Shown here piece by piece: positions 11,646 through 59,084 of a stretch of 64,000 bases of DNA (position 1 is its first letter; every line of letters begins with the position of its first letter). Source of the DNA: Bdellovibrionales bacterium. Its GTDB lineage: Bacteria; Bdellovibrionota; Bdellovibrionia; Bdellovibrionales; UBA1609. The stretch lies in assembly GCA_965205945.1 (NCBI GenBank), contig CBDBIB010000002.1, positions 67,614 through 131,613 of the forward strand. The letters are read 5' to 3'. The translations under genes and the position numbers were made by a program. The notes under the pieces are model-generated. The model worked only from the letters and a program-made list of their open reading frames with translations. It ran no database searches and was not told where the DNA came from.

Positions 11646-11668
11646 TATTAGTACTAAGCCCTAAATGC

Positions 11669-11700
11669 TAAAGAGTCTTTTTTTAAGGCTCTTTTTTTGA
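11669..11700 (+). terminator. possible weak intrinsic terminator/attenuator after tuf
   Basis: AAAGAGTC-loop-GGCTCTTT hairpin (one G.U pair) followed by a T-run. The stem is AT-rich. Confidence 0.35.
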
Positions 11701-11717
11701 AAATTGAAAGTTTATAA

Positions 11718-11794
11718 AGGGTAGTAGCTCTAATTGGTAGAGCAGTGGATTCCAAATCCACCGGTTGTGGGTTCGAATCCCTCCTGCCCTGCCA
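11718..11794 (+). tRNA. tRNA-Trp (anticodon CCA)
   Basis: Acceptor AGGGTAG/CTGCCCT (one G.U pair), anticodon stem GTGGA/TCCAC, loop TTCCAAA, encoded CCA. It sits in the canonical position between tuf and secE. Confidence 0.9.
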
Positions 11795-11875
11795 TTTTAA
11801 GTGCTTTTTTTTTCTAGGAAAGTGTAAGCCATGTCTCCGGTATAAATTGTAAACTATGTGTCAGGATGGACACAT

Positions 11876-11935
11876 TGTGAGAGTGTTAGAATCTAAGTCC
11901 ACTGGCTGTGGTTTGAATATCCCTTGCTTCGCCTA
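11876..11935 (+). repeat. degenerate copy of the 3' half of tRNA-Trp
   Basis: By eye, roughly 70% identity to tRNA-Trp from the anticodon arm to the 3' end (..GAATCTAAGTCCACTGGCTGTGGTTTGAATATCCCTTGCTTCGCC). No matching 5' acceptor strand. Confidence 0.55.
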
Positions 11936-12070
11936 TTTAATCAGCATAAATTGATAACTTTTTGTTTTTTAAAGGAATAGTTGGAAAACAAGTTTTTTGT
12001 TGATGATTCGAAAAAAATAACGTGACAAGGCATAGGTTTTCTGTGAGACATAAAAGCTCTGGAGTAAAAA

Positions 12071-12454
12071 TTGGATAAAGCAACGACAAATAAAATTATG
12101 ACGTTTTCCTTCTTATTGGCTGCGGTTCTTGTGTTTTGGACTGCTGGTGTTTTATTTGAGACTGCCTCTGATAGCTTTGCCGTTATAGCAAATTTTAAAG
12201 CACAGCCTATTATAAGGCACGGGTTTCCGTTTTTATGTGGTTTAGGAGTATTTTCGTGGCTTCAGTTTAGTGAGAAAAATAAAATTTTTGTTGACGAAGT
12301 GATTACTGAGACAGCTAAGGTTGTTTGGCCTTCGCTTCAAGATGTTAAGGGCATGACTATTGCGGTGACTATTATGTTGATTATATCGGGTATTATTATT
12401 TCTGGATTTGATTTTGGGGCTAGTAAGACTATAAAACTCATATTAGGTATGTAA
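12071..12454 (+). CDS. secE: preprotein translocase subunit SecE (three-TM form)
   Basis: Position between tRNA-Trp and nusG, C-terminal KVVWPS motif followed by a TM segment, TTG start after GGAG. Confidence 0.85.
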   Translation: MDKATTNKIMTFSFLLAAVLVFWTAGVLFETASDSFAVIANFKAQPIIRHGFPFLCGLGVFSWLQFSEKNKIFVDEVITETAKVVWPSLQDVKGMTIAVTIMLIISGIIISGFDFGASKTIKLILGM

Positions 12455-12459
12455 GGACA

Positions 12460-12999
12460 GTGAACGTGGATAAAAAATGGTACATTGTTAATGTTCAAAC
12501 TAGCTGTGAAGGGATTGCAAAATCTGCAATCCAAGAGCGAGTTGAAGCAAAAGGGATGGGAGATCTTTTTGGGGAAATTCTTGTTCCTACTGAAAATGTA
12601 GTTCAGCTTATTAAAGGTAAGAAGCAAAATAGGGTTAAAAAATTTTTTCCTGGTTACATTTTTATCCAAATGTTTTTAAATGATGACACTTGGCATTTAG
12701 TAAGAGGCAGTTCAAAAGTTACAGGTTTTGTTGGAAGGTCAAGTAATCAAAAACCTATGCCTGTTCCTGAGGAGCAAGTAACTCGGATTACAAATATGGA
12801 GTCTGGGGCTATTAAGTCTATAACCAAGGCTGATTTTAATGTTGGTGAGTCTGTAACGGTTATAGATGGTCCATTTAATAACTTTTCTGGAACAGTTGAA
12901 GAGATTAATGAGGATAAAGGTAAAGTTAAGGTGTCAGTGATGATTTTAGGCCGCTCGACACCTGTAGAGTTGGATTTTGTTCAAGTTGAAAGAGGTTAA
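12460..12999 (+). CDS. nusG: transcription termination/antitermination factor NusG
   Basis: KWYIVNVQT NGN domain and a C-terminal KOW domain. The start is GTG at 12460 or, with better SD spacing, GTG at 12466. Confidence 0.95.
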   Translation: MNVDKKWYIVNVQTSCEGIAKSAIQERVEAKGMGDLFGEILVPTENVVQLIKGKKQNRVKKFFPGYIFIQMFLNDDTWHLVRGSSKVTGFVGRSSNQKPMPVPEEQVTRITNMESGAIKSITKADFNVGESVTVIDGPFNNFSGTVEEINEDKGKVKVSVMILGRSTPVELDFVQVERG

Positions 13000-33924: not shown

Positions 33925-34007
33925 GCCCGTGTGGTGGAATTGGCAGACACGCTAGACTTAGGATCTAGTGCCGCAAGGCTTGGAGGTTCGACCCCTCTCG
34001 CGGGTAC
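33925..34007 (+). tRNA. tRNA-Leu (anticodon UAG)
   Basis: Acceptor GCCCGTG/CGCGGGT (G.U pairs), anticodon stem CTAGA/TCTAG, loop CTTAGGA, long variable arm, encoded ACCA. Confidence 0.85.
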
Positions 34008-34069
34008 CATACGTTTTGTTGGGATTTGAGCCCCAAACCAAAATTAACAGCAAAAGAAGCTTAACTATC

Positions 34070-34252
34070 TTAAATTTTATTTTTAGGTTTAGAATTTATA
34101 CTTTTATGAAGAATAAAACTGAGGCCAAGTTTGAGGTAGTCTTTTAAATATCGTTGAATTGTTCTTCTTGATTTATTTAAAATTTTTTGAGCATTTAGAA
34201 TACTTATTTTTTCATTATCAATTTTAAGCTGTTTTGTTGAATTTATAATCAC
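34070..34252 (-). pseudogene. N-terminal HTH fragment of an integrase-core (rve-type) IS transposase
   Basis: The 60-aa ORF ..ILNKSRRTIQRYLKDYLKLGLSFILHKSINSKPKNKI resembles the HTH plus 'HGNRGRxxxN' linker of IS481/ISNCY-type transposases. The catalytic domain is absent, and the fragment abuts the tRNA-Leu. Confidence 0.45.
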
Positions 34253-34558
34253 TGCCTACCTCGCCCCTTCATTTTATTATTTAAAATATAATACAATAAT
34301 TTAACGCTGTGTGAGTGTCAGTTTCCCTTGGTAATGACACACGCCCTAGTTTCTTCTTCTGGTGAGAAAGTGAGATTGGTGCTCCCGAGTGTTTATAGAA
34401 GTCTTCTTGAGACCTGTTTTACTATATTAGTGGTAGATTTAAGTTGTTGATTTTTATAGACTTATTGGATTTAGATGTTTTTTCTACAACAAAATGACAT
34501 ATAAATTGTAGTTTGTGACAAAATATATTTTAATATTAGTAGAAAGGGTTGAGAGTAT

Positions 34559-35815
34559 ATGGTTTTAAAAGAAGAGTTTGAATTTTTAAATAGTGACCTT
34601 TGGTTAAAGTACACTCAAGAAAAATACACCCCTTTAGACGACATTAAGTATCGCTTGGATAAGCTTGGTATTTTAAAGAGCAATTGGTCGGAGTTAAGAC
34701 AAAAAATACAAATATATAGAAAGATGAGTGCTGTGCCATTTTTTCTAAAGTCCATTGATAAGAGATTTTGGTATTTTCCTTCAGATTCGATTAATAAAAA
34801 AATACATCGTGTAGAAAGCTTGGGAAATAAGTTGTTCGAAAAAATAGAAAATCATAGCTCATTTAAAATAGAATTTTTAGCAAATGCAGCTGTGGAAGAG
34901 GCTGTAGCATCTGCAATTTATGAAGGTGCTAACAGTACTCGTTTAAAAGCTAAGGCTTTAATTGCTTCAGGAAATAAACCTAAGGATAAAGATGAGTGGA
35001 TGTTAGTTAATAATCACCTAGCAATGAGGTGGGTTAAAGAGAATTCAAAACTTCCTGTATCCCATGGTCTGGTCTTAAAAATACATGAAATAGTTTCAAA
35101 AAATACTCTTCAGGGAGATGATATAAGTTTTTGTGGAAAGTTTAGAAATGATGTTGTTTATGTGGGGAATCATCAGGGAACTATTCATAGAAAAATAAAG
35201 GAAGCTTTAACTGAGGTAATAGAATTAACGACAAATCACCCTCGCTTTCTACATAGCTTAATTAAGGGAATCTTGCTTCACTATTTCGTTGCATATATCC
35301 ATCCATTTTTTGATGGGAACGGTCGTACTGCAAGAACATTATTTTATTTTAAGGCTATAAAAAATGATTTAAAATTTGTTGAATTATTATCAATTTCAGC
35401 AGACTTAAAAGAGCATGGAAAAAGATACAAAAGGTCTTTTGATTTAGTGAATGAACATGAGTTGGATATAACTTTCTTTATAGATTTTTGTTTGGATTCT
35501 TTAGTTACATCTTTAGGTAAGGTTGAGAAAAAAGTTAATTACTTATTTGATATTTCATTGCTTATTGAAAAAGAAGGACTTACTTTTAACCAAGTGTCAT
35601 TGTTGCAAAGGATGGCATTAAATAAATATAGAGCAACATCAATAGAGAAATATGCTAGAGAAATTAGGAAATCTCGTGAGATAGCAAGGCGGGAATTAAA
35701 AGATTTGCTTAAAAAGGCTTATTTAAAAGAAGAAAAGAAAGGTAGAAAATTTATTTACTACGTGAATAGTAAAGAGCTAAGGGCGAGAGTTGTAGGGTTA
35801 AACTACCGCAGTTAA
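34559..35815 (+). CDS. Fic family protein (putative AMPylase) with C-terminal winged-helix region
   Basis: Canonical Fic motif HPFFDGNGRTAR. An N-terminal SAIYEG matches the (S/T)xxxE(G/N) auto-inhibitory helix motif. Confidence 0.9.
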   Translation: MVLKEEFEFLNSDLWLKYTQEKYTPLDDIKYRLDKLGILKSNWSELRQKIQIYRKMSAVPFFLKSIDKRFWYFPSDSINKKIHRVESLGNKLFEKIENHSSFKIEFLANAAVEEAVASAIYEGANSTRLKAKALIASGNKPKDKDEWMLVNNHLAMRWVKENSKLPVSHGLVLKIHEIVSKNTLQGDDISFCGKFRNDVVYVGNHQGTIHRKIKEALTEVIELTTNHPRFLHSLIKGILLHYFVAYIHPFFDGNGRTARTLFYFKAIKNDLKFVELLSISADLKEHGKRYKRSFDLVNEHELDITFFIDFCLDSLVTSLGKVEKKVNYLFDISLLIEKEGLTFNQVSLLQRMALNKYRATSIEKYAREIRKSREIARRELKDLLKKAYLKEEKKGRKFIYYVNSKELRARVVGLNYRS

Positions 35816-42257: not shown

Positions 42258-45200
42258 TTAATAATCAGGGCTACAACGTGTAAAATTAGGTTTTTCAGCA
42301 AGAGTCCAAGAAGTTAAAGTTTGGTATGAAAAACTTCCACACTCGACAACGTTAGAAACATTCCATGAACTGATGTCTTGATCAAAAGAATCTGCATTAG
42401 AAAACATAGACCTCATATCAGTAACCTTAGAAGTGTCCCAGTTAGAGGTGTCAGGGTTAGCTAAATCTGCACTTAAAAACATAGACCTCATATCAGTAAC
42501 CTTAGAAGTGTCCCAGTTAGAGGTGTCAGGGTTAGCTAAAGCTGCACTATTAAACATAGAGCCCATATTAGTAACCTTAGAAGTGTCCCAGTTAGAGGTG
42601 TCAGGGTTAGCTAAAGCTGCACTATTAAACATAGAGCCCATATTAGTAACCTTAGAAGTGTCCCAGTTAGAGGTGTCAGGGTTAGCTAAATCTGCACTAA
42701 AAAACATCCGGCTCATACTAGTAACCTTAGAAGTGTCCCAGTTAGAGGTGTCAGGGTTAGCTAAATCTGCACTAAAAAACATCCGGCTCATATTAGTAAC
42801 ATGTCTAGTTGAGCCACCATTAACAAGAGTTAAGTTATCTGCTTTATAAAACATATGACTAAAACTTTCCCACCCTGTGTCTCCTAATTCTGTAACCTCA
42901 ATTATTTGCTCGCTATCACGAAAGTTAAGATATGGGCAGCGCCCAGTGATTTTAACTATATAAGTCCCTGAAGATGAATAAGTATGATTTTTATCTAAAT
43001 CACTTGATGAAGTAACAACTCCCGAGGTTCCATCCCCCCAATGAACCATAAAGTTATATGTATAAGAAGAACTTAAACTAAGATTTAAATTTAAATCACT
43101 ACCATAAATACTAAATTTAGCTGTAAAAGGGGTTCCTAAATTTTGTATTTCAGTGCTTAAACTAACTACATCAGACAGGTTTCCGGCTGCATCTTGTGCA
43201 ACACCAGAGGCGATTGTAATTTGAATATTTCCGGTTTCATCACTGCAGTCTGAAATCCTAATACTTGGATTAATAGTTGTTCCATTTGTTACTAAAACTG
43301 TGCAACCTGTAGTAGCTCCAGTAAGGCTGACATTGCTCTTTTCTAGGTTTATACTACTAAAGTCTTGGCTTACAGTTATGGGAAAGTCTATAGAATTTGA
43401 ACTGCTTATTATATGGCTTCCAATACTGACAATAGGGGGTTTAGTATCTTTTATTAGATTTAAAACACCTGAAGTTTTAGAATTTCCAGCAATGTTTGTG
43501 ATACTAGCAGTTAGTGAAAGTGGACCATCACTTAGGCTTGAAAAATCAATATCACCACTAAAGCTTTTATTAGAACAAGTAATAAAGCTTGTACCATGTG
43601 AAAATGTGATAAGCTCACCATCTTCAGAACATGTTCCTAAAACCCTAAAACCCCCCTCATTAATAGAATTAATGTAAGATCCACTTAAAGAGTTTGTAAT
43701 AGAAATTGTTGGATCATTGTTACTTAAAAAAGTTTTCCACACTACCCCATCGCAAAACTCCAGTTTTTTTCCTAAAGAATTATACCTTAAAGTACCCTCA
43801 GTTAAACTGTCACAAGGGGTTGTAACTGTTCCAACTTTTTTTAAAAATGTAACAGTAGATGTACTAATAGATCCTGGAGTAGAAATGCTTCCAGAGACAG
43901 AAACATCACCATTATTGTTAATAGTGATTCCTTCATCATCGCCGTCTCCACTTAAATAATTTTGGTTAAGATTTATATTTAATCGAGCCCTGCCATCTCC
44001 CATATTATCAGCACTGCTTGGTAAGTTTATAAGCCGACTTCCATCAACAGCAGGCAGTCTTAAAGAGCTATCAAGCTTAATAAGCTGATTGCTCCCTGTG
44101 CCAACATCTAATCTAGCTGTGCTAATGGTTCCTGAAGTGATCTTTTCTCCATTTAAATCTGGTATATCAGATTTTAATAAACTTAAACCCTCAACCACTC
44201 TTCCTTTAACATCAACTCTAACTTTTGGGTACGTCCCTTGGGTTACACCCGTTGGTATAAGACTAGGGTTCGGGTAGGTTCCTGTAAGATCCCCTTGAGC
44301 CTGGCTTCCTAAAAGACTTGTGTCTGTCACACATGACCATAAATAAATAGGACCTTCACTCATTTGAAGTTTTTCATTGCTTTCACAATTAGGCACTCCA
44401 CCAGCATCCATTGCGTTGCCTGCATTTTTTCCTAAAGAAGCTTTTAAATAACCGTTTAAAAAGTTTGAATGTGTTATTTTTTTAAGACCACTTTGAGAAA
44501 CATCATACATTAAAACACTGTCTAAAGAATCAGCCGTAGTTTTTTCTGTAGTTTTGTTAATGTCTACACTTAAACTTCTATTAGTTGATAAATCTCCACC
44601 TCCACTTAATCCACTGTTTAAAGCCGTTCTAATAGTTCTAGTTATTGGAGCTTTTCTAGATTCAAGTTCATTAAGTGCACCTTCTACATCTGTAGCCTGA
44701 ATGTTTCCAAATGGAGTGTAGGTCACCGTGTTTGCCGCCAGACTTGCTAAACTCCAACCTTCAGACACATCCTTACAATTTGCTCCTCTTTCATCACAAA
44801 TTTGTGTTATTCTTGCTGTTCCAGCAACGTCTAATAAAGCCTCAGGACTAGCCTTACCAACTCCAACCCTTCCATTAGCATCAATAATAATTCCCTCATT
44901 ATCACCGTCTCCACTTAAATAATTTTGGTTAAGATTTATATTTAATCGAGCTATACCATCTCCCATATTATCAGCACTGCTTGGTAAGTTTATAAGCTGA
45001 CTTCCATCAACAGCAGGCAGTCTTAAAGAGCTATCAAGCTTAACAAGCTGATTGCTCCCTGTGCCAACATCTAATCTAGCTGTGCTAATGGTTCCTGAAG
45101 TGATCTTTTCTCCATTTAAATCTGGTATATCAGATTTTAATAAACTTAAACCCTCAACCACTCTTCCTTTAACATCAACTCTAACTTTTGGGTACGTCCC

Positions 45201-48200
45201 TGGGGTTACACCCGTTGGTATAAGACTAGGGTTCGGGTAGGTTCCTGTAAGATCCCCTTGAGCCTGGCTTCCTAAAAGACTTGTGTCTTGATCAACTTCA
45301 CATGACCAGGAATAAATAGGGCCGTTACTCATTTGAAGTTTTTCATTAGTTTCACAACTAGGCACTCCACCAGCATCCATTGCGTTGCCTGCATTTTTTC
45401 CTAAAGAAGCTTTTAAATAACCGTTTAAAAAGTTTGAATGTGTTATTTTTTTAAGACCACTTTGAGAAACATCATACATTAAAACACTGTCTAAAGAATC
45501 AGCCGTAGTTTTTTCTGTAGTTTTGTTAATGTCTACACTTAAACTTCTATTAGTTGATAAATCTCCACCTCCACTTAATCCACTGTTTAAAGCCGTTGTA
45601 ATAGTTCTAGTTATTGGAGCTTTTCTAGATTCAAGTTCATTAAGTGCACCTTCTACATCTGTAGCCTGAATGTTTCCAAATGGAGTGTAGGTCACCGTGT
45701 TTGCCGCCAGACTTGCTAAACTCCAACCTTCAGACACATCCTTACAATTTGCTCCTCTTTCATCACAAATTTGTGTTATTCTTGCTGTTCCAGCAACGTC
45801 TAATAAAGCCTCAGGACTAGCCTTACCAACTCCAACCCTTCCATTAGCATCAATAATAATTCCCTCATTATCACCGTCTCCACTTAAATAATTTTGGTTA
45901 AGATTTATATTTAATCGAGCTATACCATCTCCCATATTATCAGCACTGCTTGGTAAGTTTATAAGCTGACTTCCATCAACAGCAGGCAGTCTTAAAGAGC
46001 TATCAAGCTTAACAAGCTGATTGCTCCCTGTGCCAACATCTAATCTAGCTGTGCTAATGGTTCCTGAAGTGATCTTTTCTCCATTTAAATCTGGTATATC
46101 AGATTTTAATAAACTTAAACCCTCAACCACTCTTCCTTTAACATCAACTCTAACTTTTGGGTACGTCCCTGGGGTTACACCCGTTGGTATAAGACTAGGG
46201 TTCGGGTAGGTTCCTGTAAGATCCCCTTGAGCCTGGCTTCCTAAAAGACTTGTGTTTTGATCAACTTCACATGACCAGGAATAAATAGGGCCATTACTCA
46301 TTTGAAGTTTTTCATTGCTTTCACAACTAGGCACTCCACCAGCATCCATTGCGTTGCCTCGACTTTTTCCTAAAGAGGCTTTTAAATAACCGTTTAAAAA
46401 GTTTGAATGTGTTATTTTTTTAAGACCACTTTGAGAAACATCATACATTAAAACACTGTCTAAAGAATCAGCCGTAGTTTTTTCTGTAGTTTTGTTAATG
46501 TCTACACTTAAACTTCTATCAGTTGATAAATCTCCGCCTCCACTTAATCCACTGTTTAAAGCCGTTCTAATAGTTCTAGTTATTGGAGCTTTTCTAGATT
46601 CAAGTTCATTAAGTGCACCTTCTACATCTGTAGCCTGAATGTTTCCAAATGGAGTGTAGGTCACCGTGTTTGCCGCCAGACTTGCTAAACTCCAACCTTC
46701 AGACACATCCTTACAATTTGCTCCTCTTTCATCACAAATTTGTGTTATTCTTGCTGTTCCAGCAACGTCTAATAAAGCCTCAGGACTAGCCTTACCAACT
46801 CCAACCCTTCCACTAGCATCAATAATAATTCCCTCATTATCACCGTCTCCACTTAAATAATTTTGGTTAAGATTTATATTTAATCGAGCTACGCTATCTC
46901 CCATATTATCAGCACTACTTGGTAAGTTTATAAGCCGACTTCCATCAACAGCAGGCAGTCTTAAAGAGCTATCAAGCTTAATAAGCTGATTGCTCCCTGT
47001 GCCAACATCTAATCTAGCTGTGCTAATGGTTCCTGAAGTGATCTTTTCTCCATTTAAATCTGGTATATCAGATTTTAATAAACTTAAACCCTCAACCACT
47101 CTTCCTTTAACATCAACTCTAACTTTTGGGTACGCCCCTTGGGTTACACCCGTTGGTATAAGACTAGGGTTTGGGTAGGTTCCTGTAAGATCCCCTTGAG
47201 CCTGGCTTCCTAAAAGACTTGTGTCTGTGTCTGTATCAATATCAGCCACGCAAGAATAGCTTATTATAGCACCAGGGTTTCGTTGAATCTTTTCCCCACT
47301 AGTACACACAGGAAGAGTGTCCACTTGCATGAGCTGTCCTAAACCACTTCCTATATCTGCTTCTAAACCCCTTGGCGTAATTTTTAAACCACTTCCTACT
47401 TTTACTTTTAATTTATTTATATTAAACTCTAAACCCCCAGAAGAATCTAAATCTAAATCTATGTTTCCACTGTTGTTGTATAAACCCCTACCAAGGTTGA
47501 TGCTTATTGTTGGGTTGCTACCACCTGAAGAGGTTAAAGGAGCATTGACTAAAACACTTGATGCACTACTTAAGGTGCTTAAAACTTCTAAGCTAACACC
47601 ATTCCAATACTTAAGCGCTCCAGAGTCACTATTGTACCAAGTAGCCCCAGCATTGCTCATGTTCATAGATCCTAAAAGACTAACTTCTTCTAAATTCGTA
47701 TAAGAACCTAAGGTCATGGTACTTCCTGGGTTTTGCATAATATGACTTGTGTTTAGAATCTGATTATTATTAAAGTTAAGGTCACCTAATAAAACCCCTC
47801 CTGTAAGAGGAAGTTTTGTATTGTCAGTTCCTGTGGGAACCACTGAGCTTGGTAGAATTCCACTTGTGATTTTATTTGCATGAATACCGCTTGCAAGATG
47901 ACTGTTTAAAACACCCCCTGGTGCAATTAAAATTGTGCCACTGTTTGTAATGGTTCCACCACTTAAGCCGCTTCCTGCTGTAATACTGGTTACAGTTCCA
48001 CTACCTTTACCAACAACAGTGGCTGCTGATCCATTGTAGTACATGATTTGATTATTTGTAGAGTTATACCAAATATCTCCTGCCTGAGAATTAGGTGGTG
48101 GATGAGAGCTTGAAAAACTAGGTAAAAAGCTAGCTCCACTGATGCTTAATGGGGAGTATTGATTAGAACTGCCATTAATTAAAGCCATAAGCTCCCTTTG

Positions 48201-48794
48201 ATTGGCATCATTATCAAACACGGTCTCTAAATTGCTTTGAGTAACACCACGACTTACTTGAATAAAATCATTAACAGCTTTTCCACCAAGTTTGCCGGCA
48301 TACTGAGCATAGGGCACACTGTGAATTATATGGTCATTTGTTAAAGTAAGAGGGCCGCTGCCATGATCAAAAGTTACTCTAAGCCTTCTTGTATCGTTTA
48401 AGGTTGGAGTGTATGAAGACCCAAAGGCACAACTAAGACTTTTATTGTTTAAAAAAGAATTGTCTAAAGCTTTAGATAAATTTGTTAAGCCTCCATTTCC
48501 TGTGTTTATTCCAGACCCAACGTTTAAGTTAAAAACTCCCTTTGATCCTATCATATTAAGATTAAAACTTTCTTCGTAAAGAAGACAATGATCCATGGAG
48601 GATAAAACTTGAACAAGAAAGCTGACATTATTTTCTTCTAAAGCGTCTCCATTGGGTTTTACAATTTGGCCTTGAAAAACAAAAGAACTTGGGGTGGCTA
48701 GAGAATGGGGAGTTAATAGTAAAATTGTGAAGAAAGTTAAAGCTTTCACACTTATTTCTATGAAATTTTTTAATAAGTCATATACTCTATACAT
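42258..48794 (-). CDS. giant secreted fibre/adhesin-like repeat protein (tail-fibre-like repeats, Ig-like and PKD-like domains, DUF285/BspA-type C-terminal repeats)
   Basis: 2178-aa ORF with a signal peptide. Contains 3.4 x 323-aa repeats with GVTxGTYPKVRVDVKGRVVEG (phage tail-fibre-repeat-like) and GRVGVGKASPEALLDVAG motifs, a PKD-like HWGDG...HTYSSSGTY motif, and NWDTSKVTxMxxMF repeats. Confidence 0.9.
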   Translation of the reverse strand: MYRVYDLLKNFIEISVKALTFFTILLLTPHSLATPSSFVFQGQIVKPNGDALEENNVSFLVQVLSSMDHCLLYEESFNLNMIGSKGVFNLNVGSGINTGNGGLTNLSKALDNSFLNNKSLSCAFGSSYTPTLNDTRRLRVTFDHGSGPLTLTNDHIIHSVPYAQYAGKLGGKAVNDFIQVSRGVTQSNLETVFDNDANQRELMALINGSSNQYSPLSISGASFLPSFSSSHPPPNSQAGDIWYNSTNNQIMYYNGSAATVVGKGSGTVTSITAGSGLSGGTITNSGTILIAPGGVLNSHLASGIHANKITSGILPSSVVPTGTDNTKLPLTGGVLLGDLNFNNNQILNTSHIMQNPGSTMTLGSYTNLEEVSLLGSMNMSNAGATWYNSDSGALKYWNGVSLEVLSTLSSASSVLVNAPLTSSGGSNPTISINLGRGLYNNSGNIDLDLDSSGGLEFNINKLKVKVGSGLKITPRGLEADIGSGLGQLMQVDTLPVCTSGEKIQRNPGAIISYSCVADIDTDTDTSLLGSQAQGDLTGTYPNPSLIPTGVTQGAYPKVRVDVKGRVVEGLSLLKSDIPDLNGEKITSGTISTARLDVGTGSNQLIKLDSSLRLPAVDGSRLINLPSSADNMGDSVARLNINLNQNYLSGDGDNEGIIIDASGRVGVGKASPEALLDVAGTARITQICDERGANCKDVSEGWSLASLAANTVTYTPFGNIQATDVEGALNELESRKAPITRTIRTALNSGLSGGGDLSTDRSLSVDINKTTEKTTADSLDSVLMYDVSQSGLKKITHSNFLNGYLKASLGKSRGNAMDAGGVPSCESNEKLQMSNGPIYSWSCEVDQNTSLLGSQAQGDLTGTYPNPSLIPTGVTPGTYPKVRVDVKGRVVEGLSLLKSDIPDLNGEKITSGTISTARLDVGTGSNQLVKLDSSLRLPAVDGSQLINLPSSADNMGDGIARLNINLNQNYLSGDGDNEGIIIDANGRVGVGKASPEALLDVAGTARITQICDERGANCKDVSEGWSLASLAANTVTYTPFGNIQATDVEGALNELESRKAPITRTITTALNSGLSGGGDLSTNRSLSVDINKTTEKTTADSLDSVLMYDVSQSGLKKITHSNFLNGYLKASLGKNAGNAMDAGGVPSCETNEKLQMSNGPIYSWSCEVDQDTSLLGSQAQGDLTGTYPNPSLIPTGVTPGTYPKVRVDVKGRVVEGLSLLKSDIPDLNGEKITSGTISTARLDVGTGSNQLVKLDSSLRLPAVDGSQLINLPSSADNMGDGIARLNINLNQNYLSGDGDNEGIIIDANGRVGVGKASPEALLDVAGTARITQICDERGANCKDVSEGWSLASLAANTVTYTPFGNIQATDVEGALNELESRKAPITRTIRTALNSGLSGGGDLSTNRSLSVDINKTTEKTTADSLDSVLMYDVSQSGLKKITHSNFLNGYLKASLGKNAGNAMDAGGVPNCESNEKLQMSEGPIYLWSCVTDTSLLGSQAQGDLTGTYPNPSLIPTGVTQGTYPKVRVDVKGRVVEGLSLLKSDIPDLNGEKITSGTISTARLDVGTGSNQLIKLDSSLRLPAVDGSRLINLPSSADNMGDGRARLNINLNQNYLSGDGDDEGITINNNGDVSVSGSISTPGSISTSTVTFLKKVGTVTTPCDSLTEGTLRYNSLGKKLEFCDGVVWKTFLSNNDPTISITNSLSGSYINSINEGGFRVLGTCSEDGELITFSHGTSFITCSNKSFSGDIDFSSLSDGPLSLTASITNIAGNSKTSGVLNLIKDTKPPIVSIGSHIISSSNSIDFPITVSQDFSSINLEKSNVSLTGATTGCTVLVTNGTTINPSIRISDCSDETGNIQITIASGVAQDAAGNLSDVVSLSTEIQNLGTPFTAKFSIYGSDLNLNLSLSSSYTYNFMVHWGDGTSGVVTSSSDLDKNHTYSSSGTYIVKITGRCPYLNFRDSEQIIEVTELGDTGWESFSHMFYKADNLTLVNGGSTRHVTNMSRMFFSADLANPDTSNWDTSKVTSMSRMFFSADLANPDTSNWDTSKVTNMGSMFNSAALANPDTSNWDTSKVTNMGSMFNSAALANPDTSNWDTSKVTDMRSMFLSADLANPDTSNWDTSKVTDMRSMFSNADSFDQDISSWNVSNVVECGSFSYQTLTSWTLAEKPNFTRCSPDY
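42421..42800 (-). repeat. 75-bp (25-aa) DUF285-type tandem repeats, 5 units
   Basis: Units start at 42421, 42496, 42571, 42646 and 42721. Each encodes MF.SA.LANPDTSNWDTSKVT.M. Confidence 0.9.
43925..47219 (-). repeat. 969-bp (323-aa) near-identical tandem repeat, ~3.4 copies
   Basis: The SLLGSQAQGDLTG codon block recurs, ending at 47219, 46250, 45281 and 44318 (spacings 969, 969 and 963 bp). The shadow ORFs on the + strand are identical. Confidence 0.95.
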
Positions 48795-48884
48795 ATTGTA
48801 TATTTCGGATGAAAAGCTTAATAATTAGAGGAAATTAAATAGTTTTTTAGCTCTAATTCTACATTTTTATTTTCATTTAAAATC

Positions 48885-48927
48885 TGTGCTTTTACAAAAT
48901 ATGCCGATAAGGAGGATTATGTTACTA
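48885..48927. repeat. left 43-bp inverted repeat (IR-L)
   Basis: TGTGCTTTTACAAAATATGCCGATAAGGAGGATTATGTTACTA. Its reverse complement recurs at 49384-49426 (41/43 matches; the inner 27 bp are perfect). Confidence 0.95.
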
Positions 48928-49383
48928 CGTCTATTTTAAAATTATATTTAAGTTTAAAAGTATTTAATTATAAAAGTTTAGACTTTATTTTTTTAAAATT
49001 ATTATTTTCAATAAAATTTTTATCATTAAAAATAAGGACTGCTTTAGAATTTACTTTAAAAATATTTAATATTTAGCGCTCTTTTTTTAAAGCTTAGATT
49101 TAAATATCTTTATTTATCATAGCTGTTATTTTAACCAACATCTAAGTTTAAAAGTTATTAAGATACAGCATATGTATTATATAAAATTAAATAAATATTT
49201 AAAGCGATATTCTTTAAGGTTTTTTTAATATTTATTTGTATAGAGATATTATTTAAACAAGAAAATCTTGTTAATTAAACGTAACTATTTTGCAACATTT
49301 TTATGTTACAAAGAAATTTACACTTAAGCACCATAGTTAAAATCAGCAGGTCAAATCAAAAATAATGTGGTTTTAAGCAGAAA

Positions 49384-49426
49384 TAGTAACATAATCCTCC
49401 TTATCGGCATGTTTTATAAAAGCACA
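49384..49426. repeat. right 43-bp inverted repeat (IR-R)
   Basis: TAGTAACATAATCCTCCTTATCGGCATGTTTTATAAAAGCACA is the reverse complement of IR-L with 2 mismatches. Confidence 0.95.
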
Positions 49427-49811
49427 CCATCCATATTAATAACTTTAAAAGTATTCCAACCAGAAATGTTAGGGGGGTTGCTAAAGCTGCATTACTCAAT
49501 TTAATATTAGAGCTTTTGCGGGCAAATGACACAGAGCGCATTAGGAGTGTGAAAATAGTAGGGCTTTTGCTTATTTACCTATTCTAGGCAGATTCAAACT
49601 AGATTTAAATCAAGGGTATATTGTTGCATCACATTCTAAACTTAGAAGAGAGGAGTTATTTAAGTTATTCCACTAATATAAGCGCCTTTATCTAAAGGAT
49701 AAAGTATTTTATGAGATAAAAACTCTAACATACTGGTATCTTTTGTGGTTCTTAAATCTTTTGATTATATGCATGGTAGAAAAGCTATTTGTTTAGTGGT
49801 TAAATTTTAAT

Positions 49812-50651
49812 ATGAAGTTATTAAAGAAGCATAAGTGTTTTAATGGTGTAACAGAGTTTTTTGAACACGATTCTATTTTTACAAAAATCAAAATGAAATT
49901 TGCAGTGATTAGGTCTGAAAATTTAAAAGATATTAAAGGAGGTCTTATTTGGCTATCAGGGCTAACTTGTACTGAGGAGAACTTTGTAATTAAAGCCGGA
50001 GCTCAAAGAGTAGCTACTCAACTGGGTTTAGTTATAATTTGTCCAGATACTTCGCCAAGAGGTTTAAGCCTTTTAGGAGAGCATGAATCTTGTTATTTTG
50101 GCTCTGGGGCAGGCTGTTATGTGGATTCTTTAACTCAAGATTATAAACACCATTACAATATGTATTCATATGTGAATGATGAAATCTATGGGATTGTAAA
50201 CAAAGAATATAAGCTTAATGGGAATATAAGTATCTTTGGCCATTCAATGGGTGGGCATGGTGCTTTAGTTATTGGTTTAAGAAATACTAATAAATATAAA
50301 TCCATCTCAGCTTTTGCTCCTATTGTAAATTTAACAAAAGTAAATTGGGGTAAAAAAGCTTTTAAAAAATATTTAGGATCTGATGAAAATTTATGGAATA
50401 AATATGATGCTTGTGAATTAATTAAGAGTGGTAAATTTCATAAAAATAAAATTTTAATTGATCAGGGTACGGATGATGAGTCTTTAAATAAGAGCTTAAT
50501 GATTCCTAATTTTGAAAAAGCATGTGAATCATCACCTCAAGAACTTAAAGTAAGGTATCATAAGGGGTTTGACCACTCATATTACTTTGTTTCTACGTTT
50601 ATAAAAGACCATTTAAGGTTTCACCAAAGAAGTTTATTAAAACAAGTTTAA
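49812..50651 (+). CDS. S-formylglutathione hydrolase / esterase D family
   Basis: LSGLTCTEENF, PDTSPRG and GHSMGGHGAL (nucleophile elbow) motifs. 279 aa. Confidence 0.85.
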   Translation: MKLLKKHKCFNGVTEFFEHDSIFTKIKMKFAVIRSENLKDIKGGLIWLSGLTCTEENFVIKAGAQRVATQLGLVIICPDTSPRGLSLLGEHESCYFGSGAGCYVDSLTQDYKHHYNMYSYVNDEIYGIVNKEYKLNGNISIFGHSMGGHGALVIGLRNTNKYKSISAFAPIVNLTKVNWGKKAFKKYLGSDENLWNKYDACELIKSGKFHKNKILIDQGTDDESLNKSLMIPNFEKACESSPQELKVRYHKGFDHSYYFVSTFIKDHLRFHQRSLLKQV

Positions 50652-56381: not shown

Positions 56382-57741
56382 AGATTTATTTTCTGTTGCA
56401 TTAGTGGGGAGGCCAAATGTTGGAAAATCTAGCTTATTTAATGTTTTATGTCAAAAAAAAATAGCTCTTGTTAAAGATCAACCTGGTGTAACTAGAGATA
56501 TTCGACGTGGTGTTGCTAAATGGTGGGGGAAAGAGTTTTTTGTTTGTGATACTGGTGGTTGGACAAATGCTAAAGACACTATATCAAGAGCAGTTAAAGA
56601 AAAACTTCAAACCCAGCTTGAAAATTTTGATCTTCTTATTTTTATTTGTGATATTAGGCAAAAGCTGACTGCTGATGATAAGAATTTTTTTTCTATTATA
56701 CGCGGTATAGGAAAACCTTTTTTAGTAGTTTTAAATAAATGTGACTCAGACTCTCAAGATGAAATAGAGTTTTATGGTTTGGGTGTAGATGAATTTTTAA
56801 AAATATCTTGCGAGCATAAAATAGGTATAAGCCCTATAATTGAAGCAATACATCAAAATATAGATGATCTTAATATAGAATTAGGAGATGAGAAATTAGG
56901 TGCATACGAACTAAAGAATTTTCCAATCACTGTTGTTGGTAAGCCTAACGTTGGTAAAAGTTCATTAGTGAATAGAATTCTTAAAAGAGAGCAACAGTTA
57001 GTATCACCAGTTGCAGGTACTACAACAGACACATTGTCTTTTAATGGAAATCATAGAGGTTTTAAATTTAAAATTTATGATACAGCTGGAATTAGAAGAA
57101 AAGCAAAGCTTGATGGTGAGCTTGAAGGTTTAACAATGATTAAAGCTTTAGAGACAATTAATAAAGCTGAGTTTATTTTAATTGTTATAGATGGTACAGA
57201 TAAGCCATCTTTTGCTGATGCAAGGCTTATTGAGCGTTGTAGTGAGGAAAATAAACCTTTTTTAATAGTGGTAAATAAATGGGATCTTGCAAAGGAAAAA
57301 GAAGGTTTATTTAATAAGGATACTTTTAAAAAAGACTTAATTAAAGAATTTCATTTTTTAAAATTATTTAAAGTAGTTTTTGTTTCAGCACTTACAAGTA
57401 GTGGTATTGATAAGCTGTTTAAAGAGCTTTATATGCTTAAAGAAAAAATGGGTAAACATATAGGAACAGGGGAATTAAATAGATTTTTTAAGAAAGCTAT
57501 AAAGCTTACACCAGCTCCTTTTTATAAAAATAAACAGGTTAAACTTTACTATATTACTCAGACAAAACAAAATACACCAAGTTTTTTATGCTTTGCAAAT
57601 CACCCTAAAGGAGTAACTCCTTCCTATAGAAGATTTTTAGAGAATAGGATCACAGAAGAATTTGGTTTTGATGGTGTGCCAATAAGAGTGTTGTTTCTTC
57701 CTAAGAACACTGTAAAAAGAGGAATTTTTTTTAATGATTGA
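56365..57741 (+). CDS. der: ribosome biogenesis GTPase Der (EngA)
   Basis: Two tandem G domains (GRPNVGKSSLFN and GKPNVGKSSLVN) and a KH-like C-terminus. Confidence 0.93.
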   Translation: MGRSNKDLFSVALVGRPNVGKSSLFNVLCQKKIALVKDQPGVTRDIRRGVAKWWGKEFFVCDTGGWTNAKDTISRAVKEKLQTQLENFDLLIFICDIRQKLTADDKNFFSIIRGIGKPFLVVLNKCDSDSQDEIEFYGLGVDEFLKISCEHKIGISPIIEAIHQNIDDLNIELGDEKLGAYELKNFPITVVGKPNVGKSSLVNRILKREQQLVSPVAGTTTDTLSFNGNHRGFKFKIYDTAGIRRKAKLDGELEGLTMIKALETINKAEFILIVIDGTDKPSFADARLIERCSEENKPFLIVVNKWDLAKEKEGLFNKDTFKKDLIKEFHFLKLFKVVFVSALTSSGIDKLFKELYMLKEKMGKHIGTGELNRFFKKAIKLTPAPFYKNKQVKLYYITQTKQNTPSFLCFANHPKGVTPSYRRFLENRITEEFGFDGVPIRVLFLPKNTVKRGIFFND

Positions 57742-59084
57742 AGAAAAGTCAGTCTGGCGTAGTCGATTCGGGTTTTATATTGCTTCTATTGGAACAGCTT
57801 TTGGTTTAGGAAATCTTTGGAGATTCCCTTATGTTTCTATTGAGTACGGTGGTGGAGCCTTTGTTTTTATATATATATTAATGGCCTTTTTCATTGGTAT
57901 TCCTTTGCTTATTTCAGAAATAAGTTTAGGAAAATACTTACATAAAAAGGGGGTAAGCCTTTCAACATTAATCTTAAAAAAGAATTCAAAAATGAATATT
58001 ATTTTACAGCCACTTTTATGGTTGCCGTACTTAATTTCATTTATAGTCTTGTCTTATTACTGTATTCTAAGTGGATGGACTGTATACTTATTAGTGAAAG
58101 CTATAATGTATTTATCAAAAGGGATGTCGCATTTTGATGAATCGATATTTTTAACTCTAAAAGAAAAACCTATATTGCAGGTATTTTTATTAAGTATTTA
58201 CTTAATAACGGTATTTCTTATATCAATTAAAGGTTTAAAAGCCGGAGTTGAAAAATGGCTATCGTTTGTAATGCCTTTTTTTGTATGTTTTTTAATTTAT
58301 TTTTTATTTAAAATTATAAATCAAGCTGATCTTTTTGAGGCAGTTCGTTATATGATTTATCCGAATTTTCATTTACTAACATTTAAATCATTTTCTTATA
58401 TTTTAGGGCATGTGCTATTTACTATGAGTCTTGGTTTTGGTTCTGTTTTTACATTAGGTAAGTATTTGCCTAAATATGCATTATCAGGTATGGCGAGTGT
58501 GAGAGTTGTTGCTATAGATACATTAGTTTCTATTTGTATAGGTATTGTGATTTTTTCTATTATTGCTTTTTCAGGTTATAAAGGGGCTTTAAGTGAGACA
58601 TTATTTAGGGCGATTCCAAATTTTATTCAAATTAAAGGCTTGTCTATATTTTTGTTGTTAGGGTTTTATATTTGTATATTGATTGCTTTTATTAATGCTT
58701 CAATTGGTTTGATTGAAAACAATAATGTATAAATTAAACGATTCCACTGGTTGGAATAGAAAAAAATCTTCATTCTTTCTTTATACAGTTACAATAATAG
58801 TTTCAACTTTAATAATATACTTAAATAAAAATGGAGTAGGAGTTTTTCTAGGTAGAAGTTTTTTAGAGCAGATAGATGATGTAGTTATTAATTATATTCT
58901 TCCACTTTCAGCGATAGTGATTTCAGTGCTTACACTAAAATATGTTGAGAAAAGTTTTTTAAAAAATGAGTTTGATGTGGATGAAAAAATTGAAAATTTA
59001 AAAATTTATTATTTTTGGAGATTTTTTTTATATTTTATAATGCCAAGTATTTATATATTTTTTTTAGTACTCCGTGTGCTTTAA
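57734..59084 (+). pseudogene. sodium-dependent NSS/SNF-family transporter, split by a +1 frameshift as sequenced
   Basis: WRSRFGFYIASIGTAFGLGNLWRFPYV is the NSS hallmark. ORFs 57734..58732 and 58713..59084 join to about 455 aa if one A of the A4 run at 58716-58719 is removed. Confidence 0.8.

Follow-up and report, generated by a model that had tools for sequence, protein, structure and literature searches.

A 542-bp inverted-repeat element upstream of a giant surface-protein gene in a Bdellovibrionales bacterium resembles a transposon-like element stranded where the genome was rearranged, rather than an on/off switch

In the window, that is, the whole 64-kb stretch of DNA analysed here, a gene for a giant repetitive surface protein (hereafter the adhesin gene) and a gene for an esterase / S-formylglutathione hydrolase point away from each other across a gap of about 1 kb (Table 1). 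This gap is more than plain intergenic DNA, since the stump of a further gene lies within it. Between the adhesin gene and the stump is a 542-bp unit (48885-49426) in which 43-bp inverted repeats surround a 456-bp non-coding interior. The remaining window is ordinary chromosome, with tuf, secE-nusG, rplKAJL, rpoBC, rpsLG-fusA and clpB, and further carries dnaJ-grpE, rnc-era-der and glycine-cleavage genes. The esterase and the N-terminal part of the adhesin both have their homologues in Bdellovibrionota / Bdellovibrionales MAGs, and the DNA probably derives from an uncultured low-GC member of this phylum; on the strength of these homologues, a Chlamydiae origin suggested by a hit to the HC2 family was rejected. 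No Phage_integrase, Resolvase, rve or DDE domain was detected in the main ORFs of at least 100 aa across the 64 kb, which for recombinase and transposase domains alike bears out the earlier remark that the window lacks a recombinase gene.

Table 1. Coordinates of the features at the locus (window numbering; IR, inverted repeat).
Feature	Position	Strand	Description
Giant repetitive surface protein gene, 2178 aa	42258..48794	-	C-terminal DUF285, ~969-bp internal repeats, signal-peptide-like N-terminal segment
Adhesin upstream block, ~100 bp	48750..48847	-	Conserved with the relative's orthologue (L003 9918-10000); outside the element
Left spacer, 37 bp	48848..48884	.	Adhesin upstream block to IR-L; homology in the relative not detected
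IR-L, left terminal inverted repeat	48885..48927	+	43 nt; starts TGTGC; AAGGAGG-ATT-ATG inward; weaker complementarity to 48940
Element interior	48928..49383	.	456 bp; no ORF of at least 30 aa; no Rfam match; five promoter-like sites per strand
IR-R, right terminal inverted repeat	49384..49426	-	41/43 vs IR-L, inner 27 nt identical; weaker complementarity from 49371
Right spacer, 76 bp	49427..49502	.	IR-R to gene stump; homology in the relative not found
Gene stump (leader + first ~60 nt)	49503..49588	-	Counterpart in the relative (L002 7307-9229) is an undisrupted 640-aa ORF
Esterase / S-formylglutathione hydrolase gene	49812..50651	+	Synteny with the relative from here rightwards

Away from the locus, two other features of the window deserve mention. 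At 57734-59084 a sodium:neurotransmitter symporter (SNF) gene is present as overlapping ORFs of 332 and 123 aa, the nearest relative having a single 449-aa gene; the split is either a frameshift pseudogene or an assembly indel error. Immediately downstream of tRNA-Leu(tag), at 33925-35815, come a Fic/DOC-domain gene, several ORFs that lack Pfam matches and then a lysine-rich protein at the HC2 histone-like threshold, a region that could be a small island.

By blastn, IR-L and IR-R match over 43 nt at 95.3% (41 of 43 positions), the two mismatches falling in the outer 16 nt, and a repeat search extends the arms to 56 nt (48885-48940 / 49371-49426) at 88% complementarity. The 27-nt core, ATGCCGATAAGGAGGATTATGTTACTA, occurs exactly twice in the window, once on each strand, and never in 100 shuffles. 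Among inverted pairs within 3 kb, that of the element is the longest in the whole 64 kb, the runner-up measuring 22 nt. The outer ends read TGTGC and GCACA, i.e. 5'-TG...CA-3', and their edges are sharp. Within each arm, AAGGAGG-ATT-ATG reads inward and opens an ORF of only 6 or 13 codons, with a spacing of 3 nt between Shine-Dalgarno and ATG. No ORF of at least 30 aa lies wholly within 48928-49383, and the GC content along the element is 0.17-0.22 in 300-nt windows, against 27-42% in 1-kb windows over the whole window. A target-site duplication is absent from the element ends, the flanks TTTAAAATC (left, ...AAAATC) and CCATCCATA (right, CCATCC...) having 1 nt in common. Our results here coincide with the initial annotation, which had reported the inverted repeats at these positions with 41 of 43 matches and a perfect inner 27 nt (repeat search and blastn agree), the ORF-free AT-rich interior, the AAGGAGG-N3-ATG motif in both repeats (as read in the sequence) and the missing target-site duplication.

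A transcript of the minus strand of the element region folds with z = -8.8 relative to shuffles. This fold is driven by the repeat and is not independent evidence, since any inverted repeat folds in this way. The search of the element against Rfam gave no match, either at the gathering threshold or at E <= 1. Separately, the sequence TAAGTTTAAAAGTATT is present in three direct copies (48949-48964, 49143-49158 and 49440-49455; 0-2 mismatches) and nowhere else in the 64 kb, two of them within the element and the third 14 bp beyond IR-R; whole-window shuffles miss the local GC content of 17%, so that the significance of these copies is not judgeable from them. Two candidate features were discarded. 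A sigma-28 site at GCCGATAA in the arm would have its -35 at the extreme edge of the repeat with a match of only 3/8, and the Shine-Dalgarno would fall upstream of the transcript start. An outer inverted repeat of 9-17 nt (48849-48865 / 49498-49514) was considered as the true ends of the element and attributed to chance: the flanks alone should contain about 0.8 such 9-mers, the two sites are not equally far from the inner repeat, and both of them align to relatives.

The nearest relative is represented by an ENA contig of 560 kb, whose esterase is 85% identical to that of the window, and two of its loci were compared, one around the esterase gene (L002) and the other around the adhesin orthologue (L003). 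From the esterase gene rightwards, L002 is collinear with the window at 87-88% nucleotide identity in blastn alignments, the sole exception being a 366-aa gene present only in L002. On the left side of its esterase gene, L002 carries a minus-strand gene of 640 aa that is intact. Of this gene the window keeps the stump: its start codon has changed from ATG to ATA, the gene body is gone and homology ends there. Synteny thus extends only rightwards from about 49503 and, judged from these alignments, the stump is the mark of the synteny breakpoint; the outer end of IR-R (49426) lies 76 bp to the left of the stump homology. The old promoter region of the stump persists to its right and is directed through the element at the adhesin gene. 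The stump's reading frame continues into IR-R as a 46-aa ORF (49401-49541).

The adhesin orthologue of the relative, 72% identical across the N-terminal 520 aa, lies 130 kb from L002 on the same contig and is flanked by unrelated genes. Homology at L003 spans the gene start and about 100 bp upstream of it, up to window position ~48847, and ends 37 bp short of IR-L. The inverted-repeat element is absent from both loci of the relative. Together, the two comparisons place the element in a lineage-specific segment of about 650 bp, which joins blocks unlinked in the relative. Since both loci are rearranged, the relative offers no exact empty site. A 12-nt match in L003 that might have been taken for one is attributable to chance in AT-rich DNA (E = 3.1), and the more distant esterase loci L008-L010 have another frmA-frmB context and were uninformative.

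The same comparison bears on the adhesin gene itself. The start of the orthologue aligns to a GTG at 48749, 15 codons downstream of the ATG of the longest ORF (48794), and the signal-peptide-like segment opens directly after this position. The true start of the adhesin gene is likely GTG 48749, which would put the element probably ~135 bp upstream of it, and not ~90 bp as first proposed. In this regard, the initial annotation had also seen no upstream signals belonging to the adhesin gene, a view at odds with the conservation of 48750-48847 in the region upstream of the orthologue. This block is probably the gene's own 5' control region, and its conservation suggests that adhesin control lies outside the element. 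Within the gene, a tandem array with a 75-bp unit (5.5 copies, 94% matches) lies near the 3' end at 42389-42800, and ~43736-47225 is occupied by about three and a half of the ~969-bp repeats, where differences in length and assembly problems are likely.

Mobile DNA has struck the adhesin locus of the relative more than once. An IS3-family IS (HTH_Tnp_1 + rve; L003 ~11662-12938) with a 30-nt inverted repeat interrupts the adhesin orthologue, leaving it as ORFs of 573 and 700 aa. In addition, a 159-bp element with perfect 16-nt inverted repeats (L003 9598-9756) lies 250-400 bp upstream of the orthologue and consists of the fused ends of a resident IS4-like IS (DDE_Tnp_1; L003 17393-19268), both 100% identical; from its sequence, it is a textbook MITE. 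This shows that the lineage makes such elements and that the region upstream of the adhesin gene receives them. The repeat of the window element is unrelated to those of the 159-bp MITE and to the relative's IS3-family IS. Just downstream of the Lcl_C-bearing C-terminal part of the orthologue (L003 12927-15029), bAvd and reverse-transcriptase genes are found at L003 15166-17051. Together they indicate a diversity-generating retroelement, of which the giant surface protein of the relative may be the target. The copy in the window ends in DUF285 instead of Lcl_C, and a reverse transcriptase is absent from the window.

The initial annotation had pointed to other copies of the repeat as the mark of a MITE, and none was found either in the 64-kb window or in the collections scanned. 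Within the window there is no second copy of the element, full or partial, and the 43-mer has no other source sequence there. The 21-nt core had no true match in 185,579 species-representative genomes; its sole hit, in an Armatimonadota MAG, is due to chance, similarity being confined to the 21-mer itself. The 21-nt core gave zero matches in JGI metagenome contigs, as did an 18-nt core in viral contigs. The outer 22-mer matched twice in JGI metagenome contigs, both times within a coding region and with divergence immediately after the match, and these hits were also set aside as chance. Only AT-rich chance matches were returned by blastn when the whole element was compared with PLSDB plasmids and phage records and when one arm was compared with PLSDB plasmids; a match in an Acinetobacter plasmid was not located at an IS end. 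Finally, a parent full-length IS with the same ends was found neither in the window, nor in the loci of the relative, nor in PLSDB.

Four explanations for this unit were weighed. The initial annotation favoured an invertible switch, and a reading of this kind would have a distant site-specific recombinase flip 48928-49383 and so change transcription of the giant surface protein. The layout invites the comparison: as in fimS, the Bacteroides capsule and fimbrial invertons and PhaseFinder-type invertons, long inverted repeats bracket a few hundred non-coding bp directly upstream of a surface-protein gene, and the arms share an identical inner stretch of 27 nt, which a crossover region would need. 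Global invertases, e.g. Mpi in Bacteroides, can act at a distance (cited in PMC11602134), and MITEs too have been reported to invert, the Correia element being an example (PMC10969869). Unlike the known invertons, however, the element has no invertase nearby, with no tyrosine or serine recombinase within 64 kb, and its promoter signal is neither enriched nor asymmetric. The initial annotation had noted promoter-like hexamers near both inner ends, as not diagnostic in DNA this AT-rich. A count over 48600-49900 gave 12 promoter-like sites, where shuffles gave 8.3 +/- 2.8. Within the element there are five per strand, and either orientation places such a site ~200 bp upstream of the adhesin start. 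Since these sites are equal on both strands, sequence alone gives no reason to expect an ON/OFF change from flipping. Where one invertase serves several invertons, these usually have repeats in common, and the repeat of the element was not found at any second locus. Moreover, a conserved region upstream of the adhesin gene lies outside the element, which itself stands at a rearrangement junction beside a stump, and no such repeat is present at the relative's adhesin locus. With its 542 bp, the element also exceeds the length of 75% of known invertons, more than 75% of the 10,983 PhaseFinder invertons being shorter than 300 bases (PMC11602134). We found no inverton described for Bdellovibrionota, and the text of that survey carries no mention of Bdellovibrio (PMC11602134). 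Lacking an invertase in the 64 kb, with symmetric chance-level promoters and a conserved block outside, the invertible switch no longer serves as the main reading and appears quite unlikely; that the element is now a working switch, or a Correia-like MITE that flips under a distant recombinase and gates the DUF285 surface protein, is decidedly improbable.

The position of the element exactly between blocks of different ancestral origin, within ~650 bp of lineage-specific DNA, is also what would be seen if the unit were a non-mobile scar with no activity of its own, i.e. an inverted duplication with AT-rich filler that arose on the spot as the rearrangement took place, through template switching or fold-back repair, for instance. 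The missing target-site duplication and the lack of any other copy wherever searched are in line with this notion. However, the clean TG...CA ends, the sharp-edged 43-nt repeat and the Shine-Dalgarno plus ATG in each arm resemble the ends of an element, and a source sequence for the 43-mer is missing elsewhere in the window; we regard such a scar as rather unlikely, yet as an origin that deserves some weight. Less probable by far is an RNA or cis-regulatory role, in which the arms would pair into a stem of ~43 bp within an extended 5' leader of the adhesin transcript or start small peptide genes, the stem serving as an RNase III target or for Shine-Dalgarno / anti-Shine-Dalgarno sequestration. 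The strong, repeat-driven minus-strand fold would suit it, as would the consensus Shine-Dalgarno in the arm with CCUCCU in its complement and the stump's old promoter region, which still faces the adhesin gene through the element. Yet this fold merely restates the inverted repeat, Rfam families are unmatched even at the relaxed threshold, the peptides would have only 6 and 13 residues with the Shine-Dalgarno 3 nt from the ATG, and the adhesin orthologue of the relative has no counterpart.

The reading that we favour, at about even chances, is that 48885-49426 is a MITE-like non-autonomous transposable element or a gutted insertion-sequence remnant. The initial annotation had named a MITE or a deleted IS as its alternative; the ends, the junction and the comparison with the relative make this fit better than a switch, but it stays unproven, as a further copy, a parent IS and a target-site duplication are all missing. 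The 5'-TG...CA-3' termini are typical of DDE elements (IS3/IS481/Tn7/Mu-type), and IS3/IS481-type insertion sequences in particular combine TG...CA ends with inverted repeats of 20-45 bp. The element is similar to the latter in its TGTG...CACA ends, its repeat length and the ribosome-binding site with ATG tens of nt inward, and differs from them in having no transposase gene and a non-coding, very AT-rich interior. Prokaryotic MITEs are AT-rich and intergenic and form stable stem-loops, and one of them, the Correia element of Neisseria, carries promoters (PMC10969869). Like them, the unit has terminal inverted repeats, is small, non-coding and AT-rich, lies in intergenic DNA just upstream of a gene and would form a stem-loop if transcribed. 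Additionally, it sits at a synteny break beside a stump and is absent from the relative, whose own adhesin locus has been struck by mobile DNA. The divergence between the arms (2/43) is lower than the intergenic divergence between the two genomes, which fits acquisition after their split.

Several observations stand against a MITE or IS remnant. MITEs usually have repeats of ~4-30 bp and a length under 500 bp (PMC10969869), and the element, with 43-bp repeats and 542 bp, is larger than these ranges, in its length only slightly. Unlike typical MITEs, it is known from a single copy and lacks flanking direct repeats, which fade with age (PMC10969869), and unlike the 159-bp MITE of the relative, whose ends match those of a resident IS at 100%, it has no known parent IS. 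The 456 bp of very AT-rich filler exceed what a simple internal-deletion derivative of an IS would be expected to keep, and the arm mismatches fall in the outer 16 nt, where transposase binding should best conserve the sequence. Finally, homology breaks off at distances of 37 and 76 bp from the repeats, and not at their ends.

These considerations allow us to propose a model of how a MITE-like element or IS remnant might have come to lie here. The Shine-Dalgarno and ATG within the repeat would be a fossil transposase gene start, copied to both ends. The element, or a recombining pair of its copies, may have taken part in, or landed at, a rearrangement that destroyed the 640-aa gene and brought the adhesin gene to its present place. 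As a consequence, it would now join the adhesin cassette with its ~100-bp upstream region to the stump of the 640-aa gene beside the esterase gene. If two copies recombined during the rearrangement, the target-site duplication would have been lost, as we infer. The present-day element is most likely inert, and transcription of the adhesin gene is probably driven by the conserved block upstream of it, with possible help from read-through of the stump promoter or from promoters that occur by chance in the AT-rich interior. Rare RecA-type flipping via the 27-bp perfect core is conceivable, which would not amount to a programmed switch.

Taken together, our findings point to a transposon-like unit left behind at a rearrangement junction more than to an on/off switch. 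If it is indeed a stranded MITE or IS remnant, it would represent a routine rearrangement footprint in an uncultured bacterium, ordinary in kind, and its main use would be as a marker for the relocation of the adhesin gene and the destruction of the neighbouring gene. The locus would matter more only if reads showed both orientations; it would then be an instance of phase variation governing a surface protein in this lineage, with a transposon-like element recruited as the switch.
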